This document shows, in pieces, positions 18,078 to 33,896 of a DNA stretch of 33,896 nt (positions within the stretch are counted from its first letter, which is position 1; each line of letters starts with the position of its first letter). A program made the translations under genes and the position numbers. The DNA is taken from the IMG/VR virus record IMGVR_UViG_2548876958_000018. One strand, written 5' to 3'. The notes under the pieces are model-generated. The model searched no databases, was not told where the DNA came from, and saw only the letters and a program-made list of their open reading frames with translations. The stretch comes from a virus. Lineage: Duplodnaviria > Heunggongvirae > Uroviricota > Caudoviricetes.

Positions 18078-18522
18078 GTTTAAGCGTTTTGAAGACCGGC
18101 TGACCGGGCTGATTGAATCGCTGTCACCGTCAGGGCGTCGGCGACTGAGCGCCGAACTGGCGAAACGTCTGCGTCAGAGTCAGCAGCGTCGGGTGATGGC
18201 ACAGAAAGCCCCGGACGGCACACCCTACGCGCCACGTCAGCAGCAGAGCGCCAGAAAAAAGACCGGTCGCGTTAAGCGAAAAATGTTTGCGAAACTTATC
18301 ACCAGTCGTTTTTTGCATATCCGCGCCAGCCCGGAACAGGCATCAATGGAATTTTACGGCGGGAAGTCGCCGAAAATCGCCAGTGTGCATCAGTTCGGTC
18401 TGTCGGAAGAAACCCGGAAAGACGGTAAGAAAATTGATTATCCGGCGCGTCCTCTGCTCGGCTTTACCGGTGAGGATGTGCAGATGATTGAAGAGATTAT
18501 CCTGGCTCACCTTGAGCGTTAG
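18070..18522 (+). CDS. S: tail completion protein S (150 aa)
   Basis: 150-aa ORF overlapping the R stop; size and order match P2 gpS. Confidence 0.7.
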   Translation: MNEFKRFEDRLTGLIESLSPSGRRRLSAELAKRLRQSQQRRVMAQKAPDGTPYAPRQQQSARKKTGRVKRKMFAKLITSRFLHIRASPEQASMEFYGGKSPKIASVHQFGLSEETRKDGKKIDYPARPLLGFTGEDVQMIEEIILAHLER

Positions 18523-18551
18523 TTTTATCCAGGCAGAGGCTGATGCGCAAT

Positions 18552-18588
18552 TAAACATTGAGCGGCCATGCTGGTCGCTCAATGTTTA
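18552..18588. terminator. long hairpin between convergent S and moron genes
   Basis: AAACATTGAGCG (18553..18564) pairs perfectly with CGCTCAATGTTT (18576..18587) across an 11-nt loop; no strong U-run, so terminator function uncertain. Confidence 0.35.
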
Positions 18589-21888: not shown

Positions 21889-23988
21889 ATGAGCACAAAA
21901 TTCAGAACCGTTATCACCACTGCTGGTGCAGCAAAGCTGGCAGCGGCAACCGCGCCGGGAGGGCGGAAGGTCAACATTACCACGATGGCCGTCGGGGATG
22001 GCGGTGGTAAATTGCCTGTCCCGGATGCCGGACAGACCGGGCTTATCCACGAAGTCTGGCGACATGCGCTGAACAAAATCAGCCAGGACAAACGAAACAG
22101 TAATTATATTATCGCAGAGCTGGTTATTCCGCCGGAGGTGGGCGGTTTCTGGATGCGTGAGCTTGGCCTGTACGATGATGCTGGAACGTTAATTGCCGTG
22201 GCGAACATGGCTGAAAGTTATAAGCCAGCTCTTGCCGAAGGCTCAGGGCGTTCGCAGACCTGCCGCATGGTCATCATCGTCAGCAGTGTGGCCTCAGTGG
22301 CGCTGACCATTGACACCACAACGGTGATGGCAACGCAGGATTACGTTGATGACAAAATTGCAGAACATGAACAGTCACGACGTCACCCGGACGCCTCGCT
22401 GACCGCCAAAGGTTTTACTCAGTTAAGCAGTGCGACCAACAGCACGTCTGAAACACTCGCCGCAACACCAAAAGCGGTAAAAGCAGCATATGACCTTGCT
22501 AACGGGAAATACACTGCACAGGACGCCACCACCGCGCGAAAAGGCCTTGTCCAGCTCAGTAGCGCCACCAACAGCGATTCTGAAACGCTTGCGGCAACGC
22601 CAAAGGCGGTTAAGACAGCGTATGACCTTGCTAACGGGAAATACACTGCACAGGATGCCACCACAGCGCGAAAAGGTCTTGTCCAGCTCAGTAGCGCCAC
22701 CAACAGTGATTCTGAAACGCTGGCTGCAACACCAAAAGCGGTGAAGTCTGCCTATGACAATGCTGAAAAACGTCTTCAGAAAGATCAGAACGGCGCGGAT
22801 ATTCCTGATAAAGATCGCTTCCTGAGTAACATTAATGTTTACAGCAAAGGCGAGGTGGATAAGAAAAAAGGAATGCGGCTGTACGTATTTAACGCGCCGT
22901 CTAATGCTGTTGGTGGAAAGTGGTATCCAGTTATTTTCCGGCGTTCCACTGGTAGCACTGGCGAACTGGCTTCCAGAGTGGTTATTACAACCACATCTGC
23001 CGGTGGTGATTACGCAATGAATAACTGCGAATTTAATGGAATGGTAATGCCCGGAGGTTGGACTGATCGTGGTTCATATGCAGCAGGTTATTTTTCGACA
23101 TATCAGACTAATGAGCGCGCAATCCATTCCATTGTAACAAGCCTGAAAGAAGATGATGTATGCAGCGTTTTTTACGTTGAAGGCAGGGCTTTTCCTGTGC
23201 GAGTTTTTGCCGAAGAAGGGCTAACGGTTATTGTTCCAACTCAGGATTATACCGTCGGTCAAACAACATATAAGTGGGGAGCAACTAATCCCGCGACAGA
23301 AAGCACGAACGCACAAGCCATTCTGGATTTTAACAATGGGCGAGGGTTTTATTGTTCTCACTCAATATTCGGTATTAATGCCATTTTTAGCGGAAATCTG
23401 GGGATTGGAACGGCTAATGCCCTGGGTGGAAATTCAATAGTTTTAGGAGATAACGATACCGGGTTTAAACAAAATGGTGATGGGGTGCTGGATGCTTATG
23501 CTAATGGTGTGCATGTATTCCGCTTTATAAATGGTTCAGCAAGATCATTAAAGGGTATTCAGGCTGGGGAAAGTAAGTTCTTCACACTTTCAAGTGCAAA
23601 TACCGCTGCCCGTAATGCATCATTTAACTTGTGGGGAAATTCGTCAAGACCAACTGTTGCAGAGCTTGGTGATGATTCAGGCTGGCATTTCTATAGTCAG
23701 CGAAATACAGATAACTCGGTGATATTTGCTGTAAACGGTCAGATACAACCAAGCAACTGGGATAACATTGATTCCCGATATGTGAAAGATGTTCGGCTTG
23801 GCTCACAGCAATATTATGGTGTGAACAACTGGCAAACATGGAACTTTCAGTGCCCTTCAGGTCATGTATTGTCTGGTATAAATGTTCAGGATACAGGTTC
23901 CAACTCCGCCGATAATATTGCGGGTGTTTATTACAGACCCGTTCAAAAGTATATAAATGGCACATGGTATAATGTAGCGAGCGTTTAA
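21889..23988 (+). CDS. H: tail fiber protein (699 aa), mosaic with internal tandem repeats
   Basis: Large ORF after I; N-terminal part GC-rich like the rest of the phage, C-terminal about 1.2 kb AT-rich with a Gly/Asn/Ser-rich distal domain; followed by the fiber assembly gene. Confidence 0.85.
22423..22758 (+). repeat. in-frame tandem repeat inside H: 132-bp unit, about 2.5 copies
   Basis: 44-aa unit LSSATNS(T/D)[12 protein letters not shown](A/T)[23 protein letters not shown] repeated from 22423, 22555 and 22687, with a few substitutions. Confidence 0.8.
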
Positions 23989-23989
23989 T

Positions 23990-24517
23990 ATGATGCACTT
24001 AAAGAACATAAAAGCGGGTAACACTAAAACACTGGAACAGTATGAGTTAACAAAGAAGCATGGAGTCATCTGGCTTTACACTGAAGACGGGAAAAACTGG
24101 TATGAGGAAGTGAAGAACTTTCAGTCAGACACAATAAAGATTGTTTACGACGAGAATAATATAATTGTCGGCATCACCCGAGATGCTTCAACGCTTAACC
24201 CTGAAGGTTTTAGCGTTGTCGAGGTTCCTGATATTACTGCCAACCGACGTGCTGATGACTCAGGTAAATGGATGTTTAAGGATGGTGCCGTGATTAAGCG
24301 GATTTATACGGCAGACGAACAGCAGCAACTGGCAGAATCACAAAAGGCAACTTTGCTTTCCGAAGCCGAATCCGTGATTTTGCCGCTGGAGCGCGCTGTC
24401 AGGCTGAATATGGCAACAGATGAGGAACGCAGCCGACTGGAAGCATGGGAACGCTACAGCGTTCTGGTCAGCCGTGTGGATCCTGCAAATCCTGAATGGC
24501 CGGAAATGCCGCAATAA
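23990..24517 (+). CDS. G: tail fiber assembly chaperone (175 aa)
   Basis: 175-aa ORF immediately after the fiber gene; P2 gpG position. Confidence 0.75.
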
Positions 24518-24738
24518 GTTGTATAAGCTCTGGTGTGAGATTACATATCTATGGCACAGAGTAAAGCCTAATCTGACAGGCCGCTCTGTGTCTGGAGTAG
24601 ATTTTAGTAAAGCATTATTTTATTAGTGCAAATTCTAAACAATACATTTTATGTATATGATATCCTGCGGACTTTAATGATTTGGTTTAGGCTAACCAGA
24701 TAACACTGAAGGAATATTTTTGATAATTAAGGTGCGGT

Positions 24739-25332
24739 ATGTTTACTAAGCGACGATTAAAAAATATTAACTGGGAGGCAAGTTCAGTGATTCTTGCTAT
24801 GGTTCTCTTTGCTGGAAATATATTTTATACAAATCATCGTGATGATATAAGCATGGAGGCTGAGAGAGACAGTATCAGAACAATGTTTGCATATGAAATC
24901 GCTAATAACCATCGCGCTCTCACCTTTCTTGATAAAACGAGAAATATTGGCTTTGACGAAAATTCGGAGCATTTTGTTGGCGAGCCTTTTGCCATTAATG
25001 TCAAATCATCAGGGGGACCTCGCTTACAGATTGCATTAAACCAGACTGATAAAGTGTTTAAATCATACTTCAGCGAATTAAGTAAGCTTGATAAAGAGGA
25101 TGTTACTCTTCTTATGGACTATTACCATGAGCAAAGCATCCTGCTGGAGCGTGTAAAATCTACGTTACAGAAGATGAAAAGTGGTAATGATATTAAAGTT
25201 GATATTGATGGTTACTTATTAGAAGAACACTTCATGAATGAGCTTAATCTTTCTAATATTTTGCTTAAACGCTATAGCTATTTATTATCACAGCACGCTA
25301 AAGAACATAAAACAAAAGATTTACATAATTGA
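24739..25332 (+). CDS. AT-rich moron: 197-aa protein with one N-terminal TM anchor, unknown function (P2 Z/fun position)
   Basis: Preceded by a 220-bp AT-rich spacer; N-terminal hydrophobic segment SSVILAMVLFAGNIFY, then a charged, probably helical domain; lies between G and FI. Confidence 0.7.
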   Translation: MFTKRRLKNINWEASSVILAMVLFAGNIFYTNHRDDISMEAERDSIRTMFAYEIANNHRALTFLDKTRNIGFDENSEHFVGEPFAINVKSSGGPRLQIALNQTDKVFKSYFSELSKLDKEDVTLLMDYYHEQSILLERVKSTLQKMKSGNDIKVDIDGYLLEEHFMNELNLSNILLKRYSYLLSQHAKEHKTKDLHN

Positions 25333-25539
25333 TAATCTGCTAATGGTTATTCATGGGGTAACTATGTTTTATATGTAATCCAGCTCAGATGAATTATTGA
25401 TTCTGGATAATAACCGCAGAGCGGCATATACCCTGACAGGCAAATGTCCGCTTCTTGCTCAAAGCAGACTGTCAGATTTGATAACTTTTGGGCTATGTAA
25501 ACTGTCAGTCGGAAAATGAGTGTGTACAAATCAGGACAG

Positions 25540-25566
25540 GCGGGCGAATTGCCCGCATTTTCTTTA
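25540..25566 (+). terminator. candidate intrinsic terminator after the G-FI moron
   Basis: GCGGGC (25540..25545), loop GAATT, GCCCGC (25551..25556), followed by a T-rich tract ATTTTCTTTATCTGTTGTTT. Confidence 0.4.
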
Positions 25567-25661
25567 TCTGTTGTTTCATCCACTGACCAGCCAGGTCAAA
25601 TAGCGTCTCATGCTCTGCACAACAGAAAATAGTTGCACCCATTAACCACGGAGTTAAACGG

Positions 25662-26852
25662 ATGAGTGACTATCATCACGGCGTGCAGGTGCTGGAGATT
25701 AACGACGGCACCCGCGTCATTTCCACCGTATCCACAGCCATTGTCGGCATGGTCTGCACGGCCAGCGATGCGGATGCGGAAACCTTTCCCCTCAATAAAC
25801 CGGTGCTGATTACCAATGTGCAGAGCGCAATTGCAAAGGCCGGTAAAAAAGGCACGCTGGCGGCGTCGTTGCAGGCCATAGCTGACCAGTCAAAACCGGT
25901 CACCGTTGTTGTACGTGTGGAAGACGGCACCGGCGAAGACGAAGAAACGAAACTTGCGCAGACCGTTTCCAATATCATTGGCACCACCGACGAAAACGGT
26001 CAGTACACCGGACTGAAAGCCCTGCTGGCGGCGGAGTCGGTAACCGGTGTTAAACCGCGTATTCTCGGCGTGCCGGGACTGGACACCAAAGAGGTGGCTG
26101 TTGCACTGGCATCAGTCTGTCAGAAGCTGCGCGCTTTCGGATATATCAGCGCATGGGGCTGTAAGACCATTTCCGAGGTGAAAGCCTACCGCCAGAATTT
26201 CAGCCAGCGTGAGCTGATGGTCATCTGGCCGGATTTCCTCGCATGGGATACGGTCACCAGTACCACCGCCACCGCGTATGCCACCGCCCGTGCGCTGGGT
26301 CTGCGCGCTAAAATCGACCAGGAGCAGGGCTGGCATAAAACGCTGTCCAACGTCGGGGTAAACGGTGTTACCGGCATCAGCGCATCCGTCTTCTGGGATT
26401 TGCAGGAGTCCGGCACCGATGCTGACCTGCTTAACGAGTCAGGCGTCACTACGCTGATTCGCCGCGACGGTTTCCGCTTCTGGGGTAACCGTACCTGCTC
26501 CGATGACCCGCTGTTCCTCTTTGAAAACTACACCCGCACCGCGCAGGTGCTGGCCGACACGATGGCTGAGGCGCACATGTGGGCGGTGGACAAGCCCATC
26601 ACCGCAACGCTGATTCACGACATCGTTGACGGCATCAATGCCAAATTTCGTGAGCTGAAAACAAACGGCTATATCGTGGATGCGACCTGCTGGTTCAGCG
26701 AAGAATCCAACGATGCGGAAACCCTCAAGGCCGGAAAACTGTATATCGACTACGACTATACCCCGGTGCCTCCTCTCGAAAACCTGACCCTGCGCCAGCG
26801 TATTACCGATAAATACCTGGCAAATCTGGTCACCTCGGTTAACAGCAATTAA
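25662..26852 (+). CDS. FI: contractile tail sheath protein (396 aa)
   Basis: 396-aa ORF with GGAG RBS; followed by the tube gene. Confidence 0.9.
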   Translation: MSDYHHGVQVLEINDGTRVISTVSTAIVGMVCTASDADAETFPLNKPVLITNVQSAIAKAGKKGTLAASLQAIADQSKPVTVVVRVEDGTGEDEETKLAQTVSNIIGTTDENGQYTGLKALLAAESVTGVKPRILGVPGLDTKEVAVALASVCQKLRAFGYISAWGCKTISEVKAYRQNFSQRELMVIWPDFLAWDTVTSTTATAYATARALGLRAKIDQEQGWHKTLSNVGVNGVTGISASVFWDLQESGTDADLLNESGVTTLIRRDGFRFWGNRTCSDDPLFLFENYTRTAQVLADTMAEAHMWAVDKPITATLIHDIVDGINAKFRELKTNGYIVDATCWFSEESNDAETLKAGKLYIDYDYTPVPPLENLTLRQRITDKYLANLVTSVNSN

Positions 26853-32362: not shown

Positions 32363-32390
32363 TAAAAAATAAGCCCGTGTAAGGGAGATT
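32363..32390. repeat. attR core: 28-bp direct repeat overlapping the cyaR 3' terminator
   Basis: identical to 476..503. Confidence 0.85.
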
Positions 32391-32450
32391 ACACAGGCTA
32401 AGGAGGTGGTTCCTGGTACAGCTAGCATTTTATGGGTTATGTTTTTCAGC
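32364..32450 (-). ncRNA. cyaR: CyaR (RyeE) Hfq-dependent small RNA
   Basis: Minus-strand sequence GCTGAAAAACATAACCCATAAAATGCTAGCTGTACCAGGAACCACCTCCTTAGCCTGTGTAATCTCCCTTACACGGGCTTATTTTTT matches the CyaR sequence as I recall it, including the terminator hairpin and U-tail; adjacent to yegQ as in E. coli. Confidence 0.85.
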
Positions 32451-32534
32451 GAAACGGATGATAACCTTAATAAATGCAGCTGTATGTGATCGGTTTCTAA
32501 GAATTTTCCATCCGGGAAAAATAATCGAAATTAA

Positions 32535-33896
32535 TCACTTACCGTGGGGATTACGCGTGGTTTCCCCGGAGAAATTACGCATCAGCAGCGCGTAATTGAG
32601 CTCAAGATCCTGCGGGACCGGGAGCCACACAGTATAACCATCGCCTGGTGCTATCGGCATAGCTTCGCCTTTGGCGTTTTCCATGTGCTCAAGGGTAAAA
32701 TTAATGTTGCCTTGCGGCGTCATCAGCTCAAGGCTGTCGCCAACGGAGAATTTATTTTTCACCGCTACCGCCGCGAGGTCCCCCTTGCGCTCACCGGTAA
32801 ACTCACCAACAAACTGCTGGCGGTCAGAAACTGAATAACCGTATTCGTAGTTCTGATAATCGTCGTGAGTATGACGACGCAGGAAACCTTCGGTATAGCC
32901 ACGATGCGCCAGACCTTCCAGAGTTTCCAGCAGGCTGGTATCGAACGGTTTTCCCGCAGCGGCGTCATCGATAGCTTTGCGGTAAACCTGTGCGGTGCGT
33001 GCACAATAGTAGAAAGATTTGGTACGACCTTCGATTTTCAGCGAATGCACGCCCATTTTGGTCAGGCGTTCTACATGGGCGATGGCGCGCAGATCTTTCG
33101 AGTTCATGATGTAAGTGCCGTGCTCATCTTCAAACGCGGTCATATACTCGCCCGGACGCTGGGCCTCTTCGATCATAAACACTTTGTCGGTTGGTGCGCC
33201 GATACCCAGCGTCGGCTCAACATTTTGCACCGGAATCGGCTCGTACTTGTGTACGATGTTGCCAACATCATCTTCTTTCCCTTCCTGGACGTTGTACTCC
33301 CAGCGGCAGGCGTTGGTGCAGGTGCCCTGGTTCGGGTCGCGCTTGTTGATATAGCCAGAGAGCAGGCAGCGACCGGAGTAGGCCATGCACAGCGCGCCGT
33401 GAACGAAGATCTCGATCTCCATATCCGGCACCTGATTGCGGATCTCTTCAATCTCTTCCAGCGACAGCTCGCGAGAGAGGATCACGCGGGTCAGGCCCAT
33501 TTGCTGCCAGAATTTCACCGTCGCCCAGTTCACGGCGTTAGCCTGCACCGAAAGGTGGATCGGCATTTCAGGGAAGTGCTCACGCACCAGCATAATCAGC
33601 CCTGGATCGGACATAATCAGCGCATCCGGCCCCATTTCCACCACCGGTTTCAGGTCACGGATAAAGGTTTTCAGCTTGGCGTTGTGCGGTGCAATGTTGA
33701 CCACGACATAAAACTTTTTCCCCAGCGCGTGGGCTTCATTGATGCCGAGCTGAAGATTTTCGTGGTTGAATTCGTTGTTGCGCACACGCAGGGAATAACG
33801 CGGCTGGCCCGCATAAACAGCATCTGCGCCATAAGCGAAAGCGTAACGCATATTTTTCAGCGTTCCCGCCGGGGAAAGGAGTTCCGGTTTAAACAT
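32535..33896 (-). CDS. yegQ: U32-family peptidase YegQ (453 aa), host gene
   Basis: Complete 453-aa ORF starting with ATG at the window edge (MFKPELLSPAGTLKNMRYAFAYGADAVYAGQPRYSLR...); GC-typical host codon usage; next to cyaR. Confidence 0.85.
   Translation of the reverse strand: MFKPELLSPAGTLKNMRYAFAYGADAVYAGQPRYSLRVRNNEFNHENLQLGINEAHALGKKFYVVVNIAPHNAKLKTFIRDLKPVVEMGPDALIMSDPGLIMLVREHFPEMPIHLSVQANAVNWATVKFWQQMGLTRVILSRELSLEEIEEIRNQVPDMEIEIFVHGALCMAYSGRCLLSGYINKRDPNQGTCTNACRWEYNVQEGKEDDVGNIVHKYEPIPVQNVEPTLGIGAPTDKVFMIEEAQRPGEYMTAFEDEHGTYIMNSKDLRAIAHVERLTKMGVHSLKIEGRTKSFYYCARTAQVYRKAIDDAAAGKPFDTSLLETLEGLAHRGYTEGFLRRHTHDDYQNYEYGYSVSDRQQFVGEFTGERKGDLAAVAVKNKFSVGDSLELMTPQGNINFTLEHMENAKGEAMPIAPGDGYTVWLPVPQDLELNYALLMRNFSGETTRNPHGK

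Follow-up and report, generated by a model that had tools for sequence, protein, structure and literature searches.

A moron cassette at the Z/fun hotspot of a P2-like prophage is probably a transposase-less relative of an IS481-family insertion sequence

The DNA studied here, IMG/VR record IMGVR_UViG_2548876958_000018, is a P2-like prophage; we refer to the whole stretch of 33,896 nucleotides as the window. Between its tail fibre assembly gene G and its tail sheath gene FI, at the Z/fun hotspot, lies a 1009-bp segment that carries a moron and ends in inverted repeats. We consider it likely that this segment (24520-25528) is an old non-autonomous cargo transposon, or mobile insertion cassette, related to an insertion sequence (IS) of the IS481 family, and that it forms the hotspot. 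A preliminary description, made from the letters of the window, had drawn attention to repeated CTGTCAG motifs between the moron and FI and had offered two readings, a regulatory protein-binding array or compositional coincidence. On the interpretation we favor, the motifs are boxes in the ends of the cassette and not an array for a regulator of FI.

Results

An inserted element with a 7-bp target duplication at the G/FI junction

We compared the G/FI junction across 80 loci (L numbers) from viral contigs carrying a close FI homologue. In six of them (L007, L016, L043, L048, L068, and L071) the junction was empty: the G stop codon was followed by 2 nt and then by the terminator, and the repeats were wholly absent. 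The FI gene of these phages was 94-99% identical to that of the window (99% in five of the six). The empty site read C + AATAAAT (or AATAAAC) + ACAGGCGGGC, and the filled site of the window read C-AATAAGT-(TGTAT...TACA)-AATCAGG-ACAGGCGGGC, which is the empty site plus the element plus exactly 7 bp. The two 7-bp copies in the window agreed at five of seven positions, and the G stop codon (24515-24517) falls within the left one. What had been labelled a spacer between the moron and FI belongs to the inserted element, as its right end.

The filled loci held at least 28 cargo length classes (1017-3967 bp), unrelated to one another, between shared left and right ends. The common left end reads TGTATGAGCTC...AATCTGACAGTCCGCTCTGTGCCAGGAGCGGAC and the common right end ...GTCCGCTTTTCGCTCAAAGCAGACTGTCAGATTTGATAGCGTTTGGGCTATGTAAATTGTCAG...GAGTACA, with similarity stopping sharply on the cargo side. 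When the G-FI spacer was compared with phages by BLAST, homology to P2-like phages with other morons started at about 25433-25447. The segment 24520-24605 aligned to the reverse complement of 25443-25528, the strongest block shared by the two being AATCTGACAG(T/G)C(C/T)GCT. Both segments also aligned to the features of the P2-EC58 'Z-region' record AJ512683.1, which annotates a 'left inverted repeat' (3-115) and a 'right inverted repeat' (1743-1833) around its moron; other records of the series AJ512676-AJ512683 (2004) carry a like annotation. Lying between the G stop and the terminator and pF promoter, and homologous to the annotated repeats, the repeats of the window belong to the Z/fun inverted repeats, which are themselves already known from the 2004 GenBank records. 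Conservation of the motifs in P2-like FI upstream regions, which the preliminary description had proposed as one check, held for the two direct motifs in P2 and in filled-site relatives but failed in the empty-site phages, which do not have them.

The motifs occupy fixed positions in a composite terminal repeat

An information profile was built from 141 distinct, non-identical ends, of which metagenomes supplied 96 and the P2 site 45. The terminal inverted repeat (TIR) is about 86 bp long and consists, from the outside in, of a tip 5'-TGTAT(T/G)AGCTC, an outer box CTGAC- at positions 21-27, an inner box, and a 28-nt inner module, followed by the cargo. The inner box (AATCTGACAG, positions 51-60) lies 33 bp, or three helical turns, from the outer box and reads CTGACAG in 111 of the 141 ends; in the outer box the core CTGAC is conserved. 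Information is highest in the tip (TGTA, CTC), in the outer box CTGAC, and above all in positions 49-74 (CTAATCTGACAG TC.GCT.TG.GC.A). The stretch between the boxes is poorly conserved, and beyond about position 88 the sequence is random. The arms of the inner module could pair in 75% of cases compared with 25-43% in shifted controls, with few compensatory changes and mostly plain conservation.

The preliminary description had placed CTGACAG at 25433-25439 and ACTGTCAG at 25468-25475 and 25501-25508, 33 bp apart from start to start and upstream of a candidate terminator and FI. All of this was verified in the sequence, the terminator starting at 25540 and FI at 25662. Within the right TIR, the two ACTGTCAG copies are the inner and outer boxes, and the left TIR holds their mirror images. 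The exact 8-mer is present twice in P2 as well, but most P2-like relatives have TTGTCAG as the outer copy. The third copy, at 25433-25439, is real as a sequence, but it belongs to the cargo, 3 nt beyond the edge of the conserved repeat; identity between cargos at its columns was about 0.3-0.5.

The same repeat family bounds transposase-less cassettes outside P2

We searched for the TIR family beyond P2-like phages with an exact 22-mer of the right-repeat core in one genome per species, and in metagenomes with the tip sequence and then with a profile of ends; both scans are samples, not a census. The species-level scan gave two loci, one in a metagenome-assembled genome (MAG) and one in Pantoea. 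The MAG copy is flanked by the duplication CACTATT. In E. coli CEC15 (NZ_CP133657, L087 3959-6087), the repeats bound a 2.1-kb segment that begins and ends with TGTATTAGCTCAGA and has a perfect GATTATC duplication, and the copy in E. coli CFE299 has the duplication GATAGC. The metagenomes yielded at least 34 paired elements of 727-7510 bp and at least 11 independent insertions with perfect 7-bp duplications, which include CTTAATA, AATGATA, GCTGAGT, GTTTATC, ATTTATT, GATAAAG, AATCAAG, CCTGATA, and CTTTATC. The family also matched 686 plasmid records, mostly from Klebsiella, and repeat matches occurred in 2230 of 5426 complete E. coli genomes, where most are presumably P2-like prophages.

The elements typically lie 0-30 bp from the stop codon of a neighboring gene, which may encode a P4-type integrase, a tail-fibre protein, an XRE-type regulator, Hha, or H-NS. 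No transposase was found in the cargos examined, namely those of the eight largest paired elements and the open reading frames (ORFs) beside unpaired ends. These ORFs, some of them defense-like, encode an alkyl sulfatase, a channel, a reverse transcriptase with its partner, an ATPase+HNH pair, a patatin-like protein, an exonuclease, OppA, and metabolic and transport proteins. When 581 ORFs were clustered, only neighboring integrases, tail proteins, and invertases recurred among the matches listed. Cargo common to P2 and non-P2 cassettes, among those sampled, amounted to one match of 622 nt at 87% identity, which was uninformative.

Several of these settings are worth recording on their own account. 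In Pantoea, an unpaired end (L085 4063-4158) sits by a truncated P4-type integrase, downstream of smpB and next to smpB/ssrA. The CEC15 cassette sits in an array of orphan CdiA-CT/immunity modules, that is, contact-dependent inhibition (CDI) toxin modules. Cassettes about 30 bp past the stop codons of P4-type integrases occupy the same site with varied cargos (L100, L104, L105, and L147; at least 13 loci), which may reflect a target preference or may hint at an exchange enzyme. Repeats flanking the psu-int hotspot of satellite P4 were also considered as relatives and rejected; P4 itself carries no such sequence.

The cassette tips match the repeats of an IS481-family insertion sequence

Some scan matches were confined to the terminal ~30 nt and sat at the ends of contigs, as is usual for multicopy elements. 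A complete IS copy (L138:7524-8726) measures 1203 bp and encodes a 358-amino acid transposase; the IS ranges from 1201 to 1203 bp. The transposase scored 285.6 bits against the NCBIfam IS481 model NF033577 (cut-off 224) and contains the Pfam domains HTH_29 and rve_3, with an additional rve match at 27.1 bits, below the gathering score. Full-length copies in E. coli genomes and plasmids are about 81% identical in DNA and are annotated in RefSeq as 'IS481 family transposase'. The IS was found in E. coli, E. albertii, and their plasmids (e.g., NZ_CP148401.1 986471-987671), and three of five copies examined had perfect 7-bp duplications (CATTAAA, CCTTAAT, and TTTTAGC).

The left repeat of the IS reads TGTATTAGCTCAGAC(C/T)TGATCTGACAG and the right repeat TGTATTAGTCGCGAC(T/C)(T/A)GATCTGACA(C/T). 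Both repeats are bipartite: the tip TGTATTAG and the internal block GATCTGACA are conserved. Many cassette tips agree with the left repeat of the IS at 27 of 27 nt, for example the right end of the CEC15 cassette compared with the left repeat of L138, and the outer box of the cassettes therefore corresponds to the internal block of the IS repeat. In the window, the right outer box corresponds to TGATCTGACA, the conserved internal block in both inverted repeats of the IS; its tips match the IS repeat at 18 of 27 positions on the left and 15 of 27 on the right, retaining TGTA, CTC, and the box positions. The cassette family thus shows the three features of an IS derivative: matching tips, a 7-bp duplication, and no transposase in the cargos examined. 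In the window copy the duplication geometry is exact, but the tip match is only partial.

Two further observations concern the IS. Partial blastn matches to the 1.2-kb element were present in 5350 of 5426 complete E. coli genomes, at a median of two places, and full-length matches in 77. In L117 (2726-2772), two IS tips stand face to face in a 47-bp perfect palindrome (TGTATTAGCTCAGACTTGATCTG-N-CAGATCAAGTCTGAGCTAATACA) with no other content, which looks like a minimal element or a relic of abutted ends.

Cargo is probably replaced at resident cassettes

All cargos at the P2 site lie within the same decayed duplication. Elsewhere, L100 and L105 share the duplication GATAAAG beside an integrase gene with cargos of 3389 bp and 1400 bp, respectively, and a site after the tail-fibre gene is common to five loci with four cargo lengths. 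Because one site and one duplication hold many cargos, replacement of cargo in situ appears to be far commoner than transposition of the cassette. The replacement boundary is a step: constancy of at least 90% across the outer arm and loop of the inner module gives way to two hypervariable positions. Beyond these, the inner arm AGCGGAC retains 70-90% conservation among unrelated cargos though it travels with the cargo. Conservation is greatest in the block made up of the inner box and the neighboring half of the inner module, and cargo-linked sequence starts directly inside that block. Whether polymorphism along the flanks follows the cargo or the backbone was confounded, since phages that share a cargo are also each other's closest relatives.

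Alternative explanations

The boxes, or the block that holds them, might be part of site-specific recombination sites that exchange cargo. Nilsson et al. reportedly implied a reading of the repeats as recombination sites. We take it seriously as a minority possibility, and it is compatible with a transposon origin. Cargo would be bounded by an A module (TCCGCTC-TGTGCCAG-GAGCGGA) and a B module (TCTGCTT-TGAGCGAG-GAGCGGA), of which the outer arm stays and the inner arm travels. Several observations point this way besides the conserved inner arm. In at least 28 P2 cargos the boundary step falls at one and the same dinucleotide beside the inner arm, as it does in cassettes of a second host site past the tail-fibre gene, and varied cargos share an insertion site and duplication at three host sites (P2 G/FI, 30 bp past the P4-type integrase, and the tail-fibre 3' end). 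An A end was paired with a B end in every cassette that could be classified (29 of 29 metagenome pairs among the matches listed, and L084, L087, and L088). At the P2 site, typable ends were without exception of type A at the left and type B at the right, and both ends could be typed in 23 of 31 classes. Long cassettes also contain A and B modules by themselves, set back to back without tips or boxes, at the borders of sub-cargos. In these B-A doublets the 28-nt inner modules lie about 17 nt apart (L184 3360-3447, L100 ~945-1020, L101, L178, and L122 ~2065-2136), an arrangement resembling REPIN/BIME doublets or recombination sites. Yet no recombinase was identified, and none is encoded in the cassettes examined; no integrase lies in or beside the P2 cassette, and the TIR sequence on inspection showed no resemblance to the dif/pdif or attC consensus. 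The A/B asymmetry could be an inherited difference between left and right repeats, covariation of the inverted arms is weak, and the CTGACAG boxes are absent from the internal doublets, so they are not required for the inner module. The same step would result from short-homology recombination in the most conserved 26 nt, where the inner CTGACAG box lies. The replacement pattern fits site-specific exchange and short-homology recombination equally well.

Three further readings concern the motifs themselves, and each fares poorly. Coincidence of a common word, raised in the preliminary description, gains something from word statistics: CTGTCAG is over-represented in the window (13 observed compared with 2.96 expected), and the chance of three copies in 76 bp at that background rate is about 8e-4 window-wide, but 72% of first-order Markov shuffles of the window hold at least one 7-mer three times within 80 bp. 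Such clusters numbered 1.3 on average in the shuffles and four in the real window. After this correction for all heptamers the cluster is not significant by itself, and it gains meaning through comparison with other genomes. For the two direct copies, that comparison refutes chance, as they stand at fixed positions (21-27 and 54-60) among the most conserved of the 141 ends, and we find coincidence hardly credible as an account of the cluster; for the cargo-specific third copy alone it is the likeliest reading. An operator-like array for a regulator of FI (the late operon) or of the moron is very improbable as well. Two direct copies 33 bp apart would share a helical face, an inverted copy is added, and the motifs are conserved in P2 and filled-site relatives. 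However, they lie upstream of the terminator, while the activator site and start of pF annotated in P2 lie downstream of it; empty-site phages keep the terminator-promoter-FI arrangement without the motifs; the same boxes occur in cassettes beside integrase, hha/H-NS, toxin, and plasmid genes unrelated to FI; and mirror boxes stand at the opposite end of the element. Sites for Ogr and related late activators are partial dyads centred about 55 bp upstream of the late start; for the motifs, the corresponding distances from the inferred start are about 130 and 165 bp, with the terminator in between. The claim of a regulatory protein-binding array survives in part: the motifs probably do bind a protein, but most likely a transposase and not a regulator of FI or the moron. 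We give as little credence to a role at the RNA level, in which the repeats would pair, or form small hairpins, as an RNase III site, insulator, or terminator around the moron. The predicted duplex between the repeats is strong (-50.3 kcal/mol compared with -33.2 +/- 4.7 for shuffles, z = -3.7) and the inner-module arms pair more often than controls, as noted above. But any inverted repeat of 60% identity would give this duplex score, the cofold z is -1.9, the arms show almost no compensatory changes, the small hairpins lack a T-run, and conservation is at the sequence level with its peak in the unpaired boxes. Rfam at the gathering threshold gave only CyaR (32367-32452) in the whole window, with no match at the repeats, and at a permissive threshold, over 24400-25700, only a chance snoRNA match in the cargo.

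A transposon of the Tn552/Tn7/Mu type had also been considered, suggested by the long ends, the TGT tips, and duplications of 6-7 bp; this candidate was dropped after the IS481-family partner was found.

Prophage setting and feature map

The features of the region are collected in Table 1. The moron, a 197-amino acid ORF, begins with an N-terminal hydrophobic segment and follows a sigma-70-like site. It matches phrog_3829, a family of unknown function (E 6.6e-135), had no match in Pfam, NCBIfam, or PADLOC, and showed no transposase domain. The activator site and transcription start of pF were transferred from P2 by position only, and the allele of the window differs in sequence from that of P2.

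Table 1. Features of the cassette and its surroundings, in window coordinates
Feature	Position	Strand	Basis or remark
Tail fibre gene H	21889-23988
Tail fibre assembly gene G	23990-24517	+	ORF list; E. coli matches annotated 'tail fiber assembly protein'; homologous to P2 G end
Left 7-bp target duplication copy, AATAAGT	24513-24519		Empty/filled site comparison
Inserted element, 1009 bp (TIR-A + cargo + TIR-B)	24520-25528		Absent from six empty-site loci
Left TIR, A-type inner module, GTGCCA-like loop, tip TGTATAAGCTC	24520-24605	+	Alignment with right repeat and AJ512683.1 'left inverted repeat'; A/B typing
Left outer box, degenerate ATTACAT (relatives CTTACAT / CTGACAT)	24540-24546	+	Positions 21-27 from tip
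Left inner box CTGACAG, mirror of 25469-25475	24573-24579	+	Positions 54-60 from tip
AT-rich cargo with promoter-like site (24700-24727) and 197-amino acid ORF (24739-25332)	24606-25442	+
Third motif copy, CTGACAG	25433-25439	+	Only in same-cargo loci (L014, L031, others); other cargos unrelated here
Right TIR, B-type inner module, GAGCGA-like loop, minus-strand tip TGTACACACTC	25443-25528	-	Matches AJ512683.1 'right inverted repeat'
Right inner box, CTGACAG on minus strand	25469-25475	-	Positions 54-60 from tip; core of block 49-74
Right outer box, CTGACAG on minus strand	25502-25508	-	Positions 21-27 from tip
Right 7-bp target duplication copy, AATCAGG	25529-25535
Intrinsic terminator GCGGGCGAATTGCCCGC + T-run	25540-25566 (25540-25556 without T-run)	+	Directly after G stop in empty-site phages
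Counterpart of P2 'activator binding site; activation of pF promoter'	25569-25597	+	Position alignment to NC_001895 17555-17583
Expected FI transcription start	~25636-25638		Position alignment to NC_001895 17626-17628
Tail sheath gene FI	25662-26852	+

The surroundings showed several other features. The pF activator/promoter region (25566-25640) exists as two quite different alleles, which read ATCTGTTGTTTCATCCACTGACCAGCCAGG in the window type and ACCGGTGGTTGTGCTGTCGATTAGCCAACCGG in the P2 type, as judged from L083 (2550-2630) and the empty-site loci L016, L068, and L071. Both alleles occur in filled and empty sites, so the region just 3' of the cassette is itself mosaic. In a sub-lineage of P2-like phages (L002, L003, L015, and others, with E. 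coli matches), a serine recombinase (invertase) gene lies directly upstream of FI without a cassette, and homology to the window is limited to the ~90 bp that precede FI. In gene H, a unit of about 43 amino acids is present in three tandem copies (22300-22760). A full-length CyaR/RyeE small RNA gene (32367-32452, minus strand, 100.7 bits) lies just past the late genes of the prophage, a position that we take to agree with the P2-type attachment region beside cyaR in E. coli. With both strands counted, two further 7-mers form clusters of three copies within 80 bp: CGCTCAA (18512-18582), whose copies are dyad-like and intergenic, and ATTACGC (32550-32596), whose copies lie downstream of CyaR.

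Discussion

Our preferred explanation is that the cassette inserted long ago between the stop codon of G and the terminator preceding the FI promoter. Its tip and outer box would be the inverted repeat of the 1.2-kb IS481-family IS, with which the cassettes share the unusual 7-bp duplications. IS inverted repeats are generally bipartite, an internal part binding the transposase and the tip serving catalysis. From this organization we infer that the boxes are sequence-specific sites for the IS transposase, supplied in trans, and that the TGTA tip would be the place of cleavage and strand transfer. Each end would then offer two sites on one helical face, and two boxes at fixed positions three helical turns apart are what one would most likely expect of transposase-binding sites. 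The boxes have no evident part in FI expression. Given its partially matching tips (18/27 and 15/27) and its decayed duplication (5/7), the window copy is probably an immobile fossil, and its present role is probably to provide conserved arms for cargo replacement.

Several points weigh against this explanation. The IS repeats hold the outer box only, together with an inverted second copy at positions 51-57 of the left repeat, and the directly repeated inner box is specific to the cassettes. Among P2-like phages, conservation of the TIRs does not exceed that of the 3' end of G or the pF region, so selection on the motifs within this lineage is not demonstrated. Mobilization in trans is suggested solely by identical tips and equal duplication length, and with its degenerate tips and duplication the window copy may never be mobile again. 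Transposition alone, moreover, leaves the sharp and identical inner boundary of unrelated cargos unexplained.

The TIRs could conceivably be a two-layer device. Through the outer layer, the tip with the CTGACAG boxes, an IS481-type transposase would plant an acceptor past stop codons in phages, satellites or islands, and plasmids; the inner A and B modules would be heterospecific sites that swap the cargo while the acceptor stays in place. We offer this as speculation and think it unlikely. If true, the device would be a natural equivalent of recombinase-mediated cassette exchange and would explain the turnover of defense genes at the Z/fun, P4-type-integrase-adjacent, and tail-fibre hotspots.

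Z/fun is a classic hotspot for morons and anti-phage defense genes, and the turnover of its content has so far been unexplained. The transposon reading gives a testable mechanism, with the transposase, the box sites, and the inner modules as candidate components. It would provide one vehicle linking hotspots in phages, islands, and plasmids, with reverse-transcriptase, Septu-like, patatin/TIR-like, and metabolic cargos. The TIR profile can serve as a search tool for cargo genes and, should the two-layer reading be true, as a handle for new defense cargos. More narrowly, the motif cluster is settled as not being an FI regulator.

The G/FI (Z/fun) hotspot has been described without mention of the repeats (PMC3573123; bioRxiv 10.1101/2024.10.15.618418), and for another P2 hotspot the recombination pathway was explicitly left open (PMC9122126). 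In the literature searched we found no account of the empty-site geometry and 7-bp duplication, of the repeats beyond P2, of IS481-like tips, or of A/B modules, although Nilsson et al. 2004 lies outside that literature and may anticipate part of this. Nor did that literature contain the repeat sequences or a paper tying IS481 to the P2 hotspot or to defense cassettes. The locus (moron position 2) and sequences are the same as in the records of Nilsson, Karlsson, and Haggard-Ljungquist (Mol Biol Evol 2004; AJ512676-AJ512683). The records and literature examined treat the Z/fun repeats as recombination-site-like flanks, and the transposon-end reading differs from this. To judge from that literature, new here are the interpretation of the repeats as transposon ends with a 7-bp duplication, the IS481-family IS as the source of tips and outer box, the widespread family with defense and accessory cargos in phages, islands, and plasmids, and the A/B modules.

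Compared with known systems, the cassettes share with the IS481-family IS the terminal 27 bp including the CTGACAG box, 5'-TGT...ACA-3' ends, and 7-bp duplications in AT-rich targets. They differ from it in having no transposase, repeats of ~86 rather than ~27 bp, a second direct box, and an A or B inner module. Transposase-less mobile insertion cassettes are an established concept. MIC231 of Bacillus cereus, the Aeromonas qnrS2 cassette, and the Tn3-derived TIMEs likewise carry passengers between IS-type repeats without a transposase, have duplications of the length made by the parental IS, and are presumed to be mobilized in trans. The present cassettes differ in being related to IS481, in their much longer composite repeats, and in one fixed-site copy with dozens of cargos; the last point implies frequent replacement in situ, which classical mobile insertion cassettes are not known to show.

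The architecture of the ends is shared with larger transposons. The TnsB sites of Tn7, the L1-L3/R1-R3 sites of Mu, and the 116-bp repeats of Tn552 all have a 5'-TGT tip followed by helically spaced short boxes in an end of about 100 bp. The cassettes differ from these systems in being related to IS481 and not to TnsB/MuA/TniA, and in a 7-bp rather than a 5-bp duplication. In their position-constant boundaries, A and B modules, and internal doublets, they resemble integron attC sites, Acinetobacter pdif, and engineered cassette exchange, in appearance only; unlike integron and pdif systems, they have no integrase or attI, no XerC/D-like sequence, and weak structural covariation. The Ogr-activated pF promoter of P2 occupies the same neighborhood, whereas the motifs lie 60-135 bp upstream of its activator/start region (~25569-25638), inside the element.

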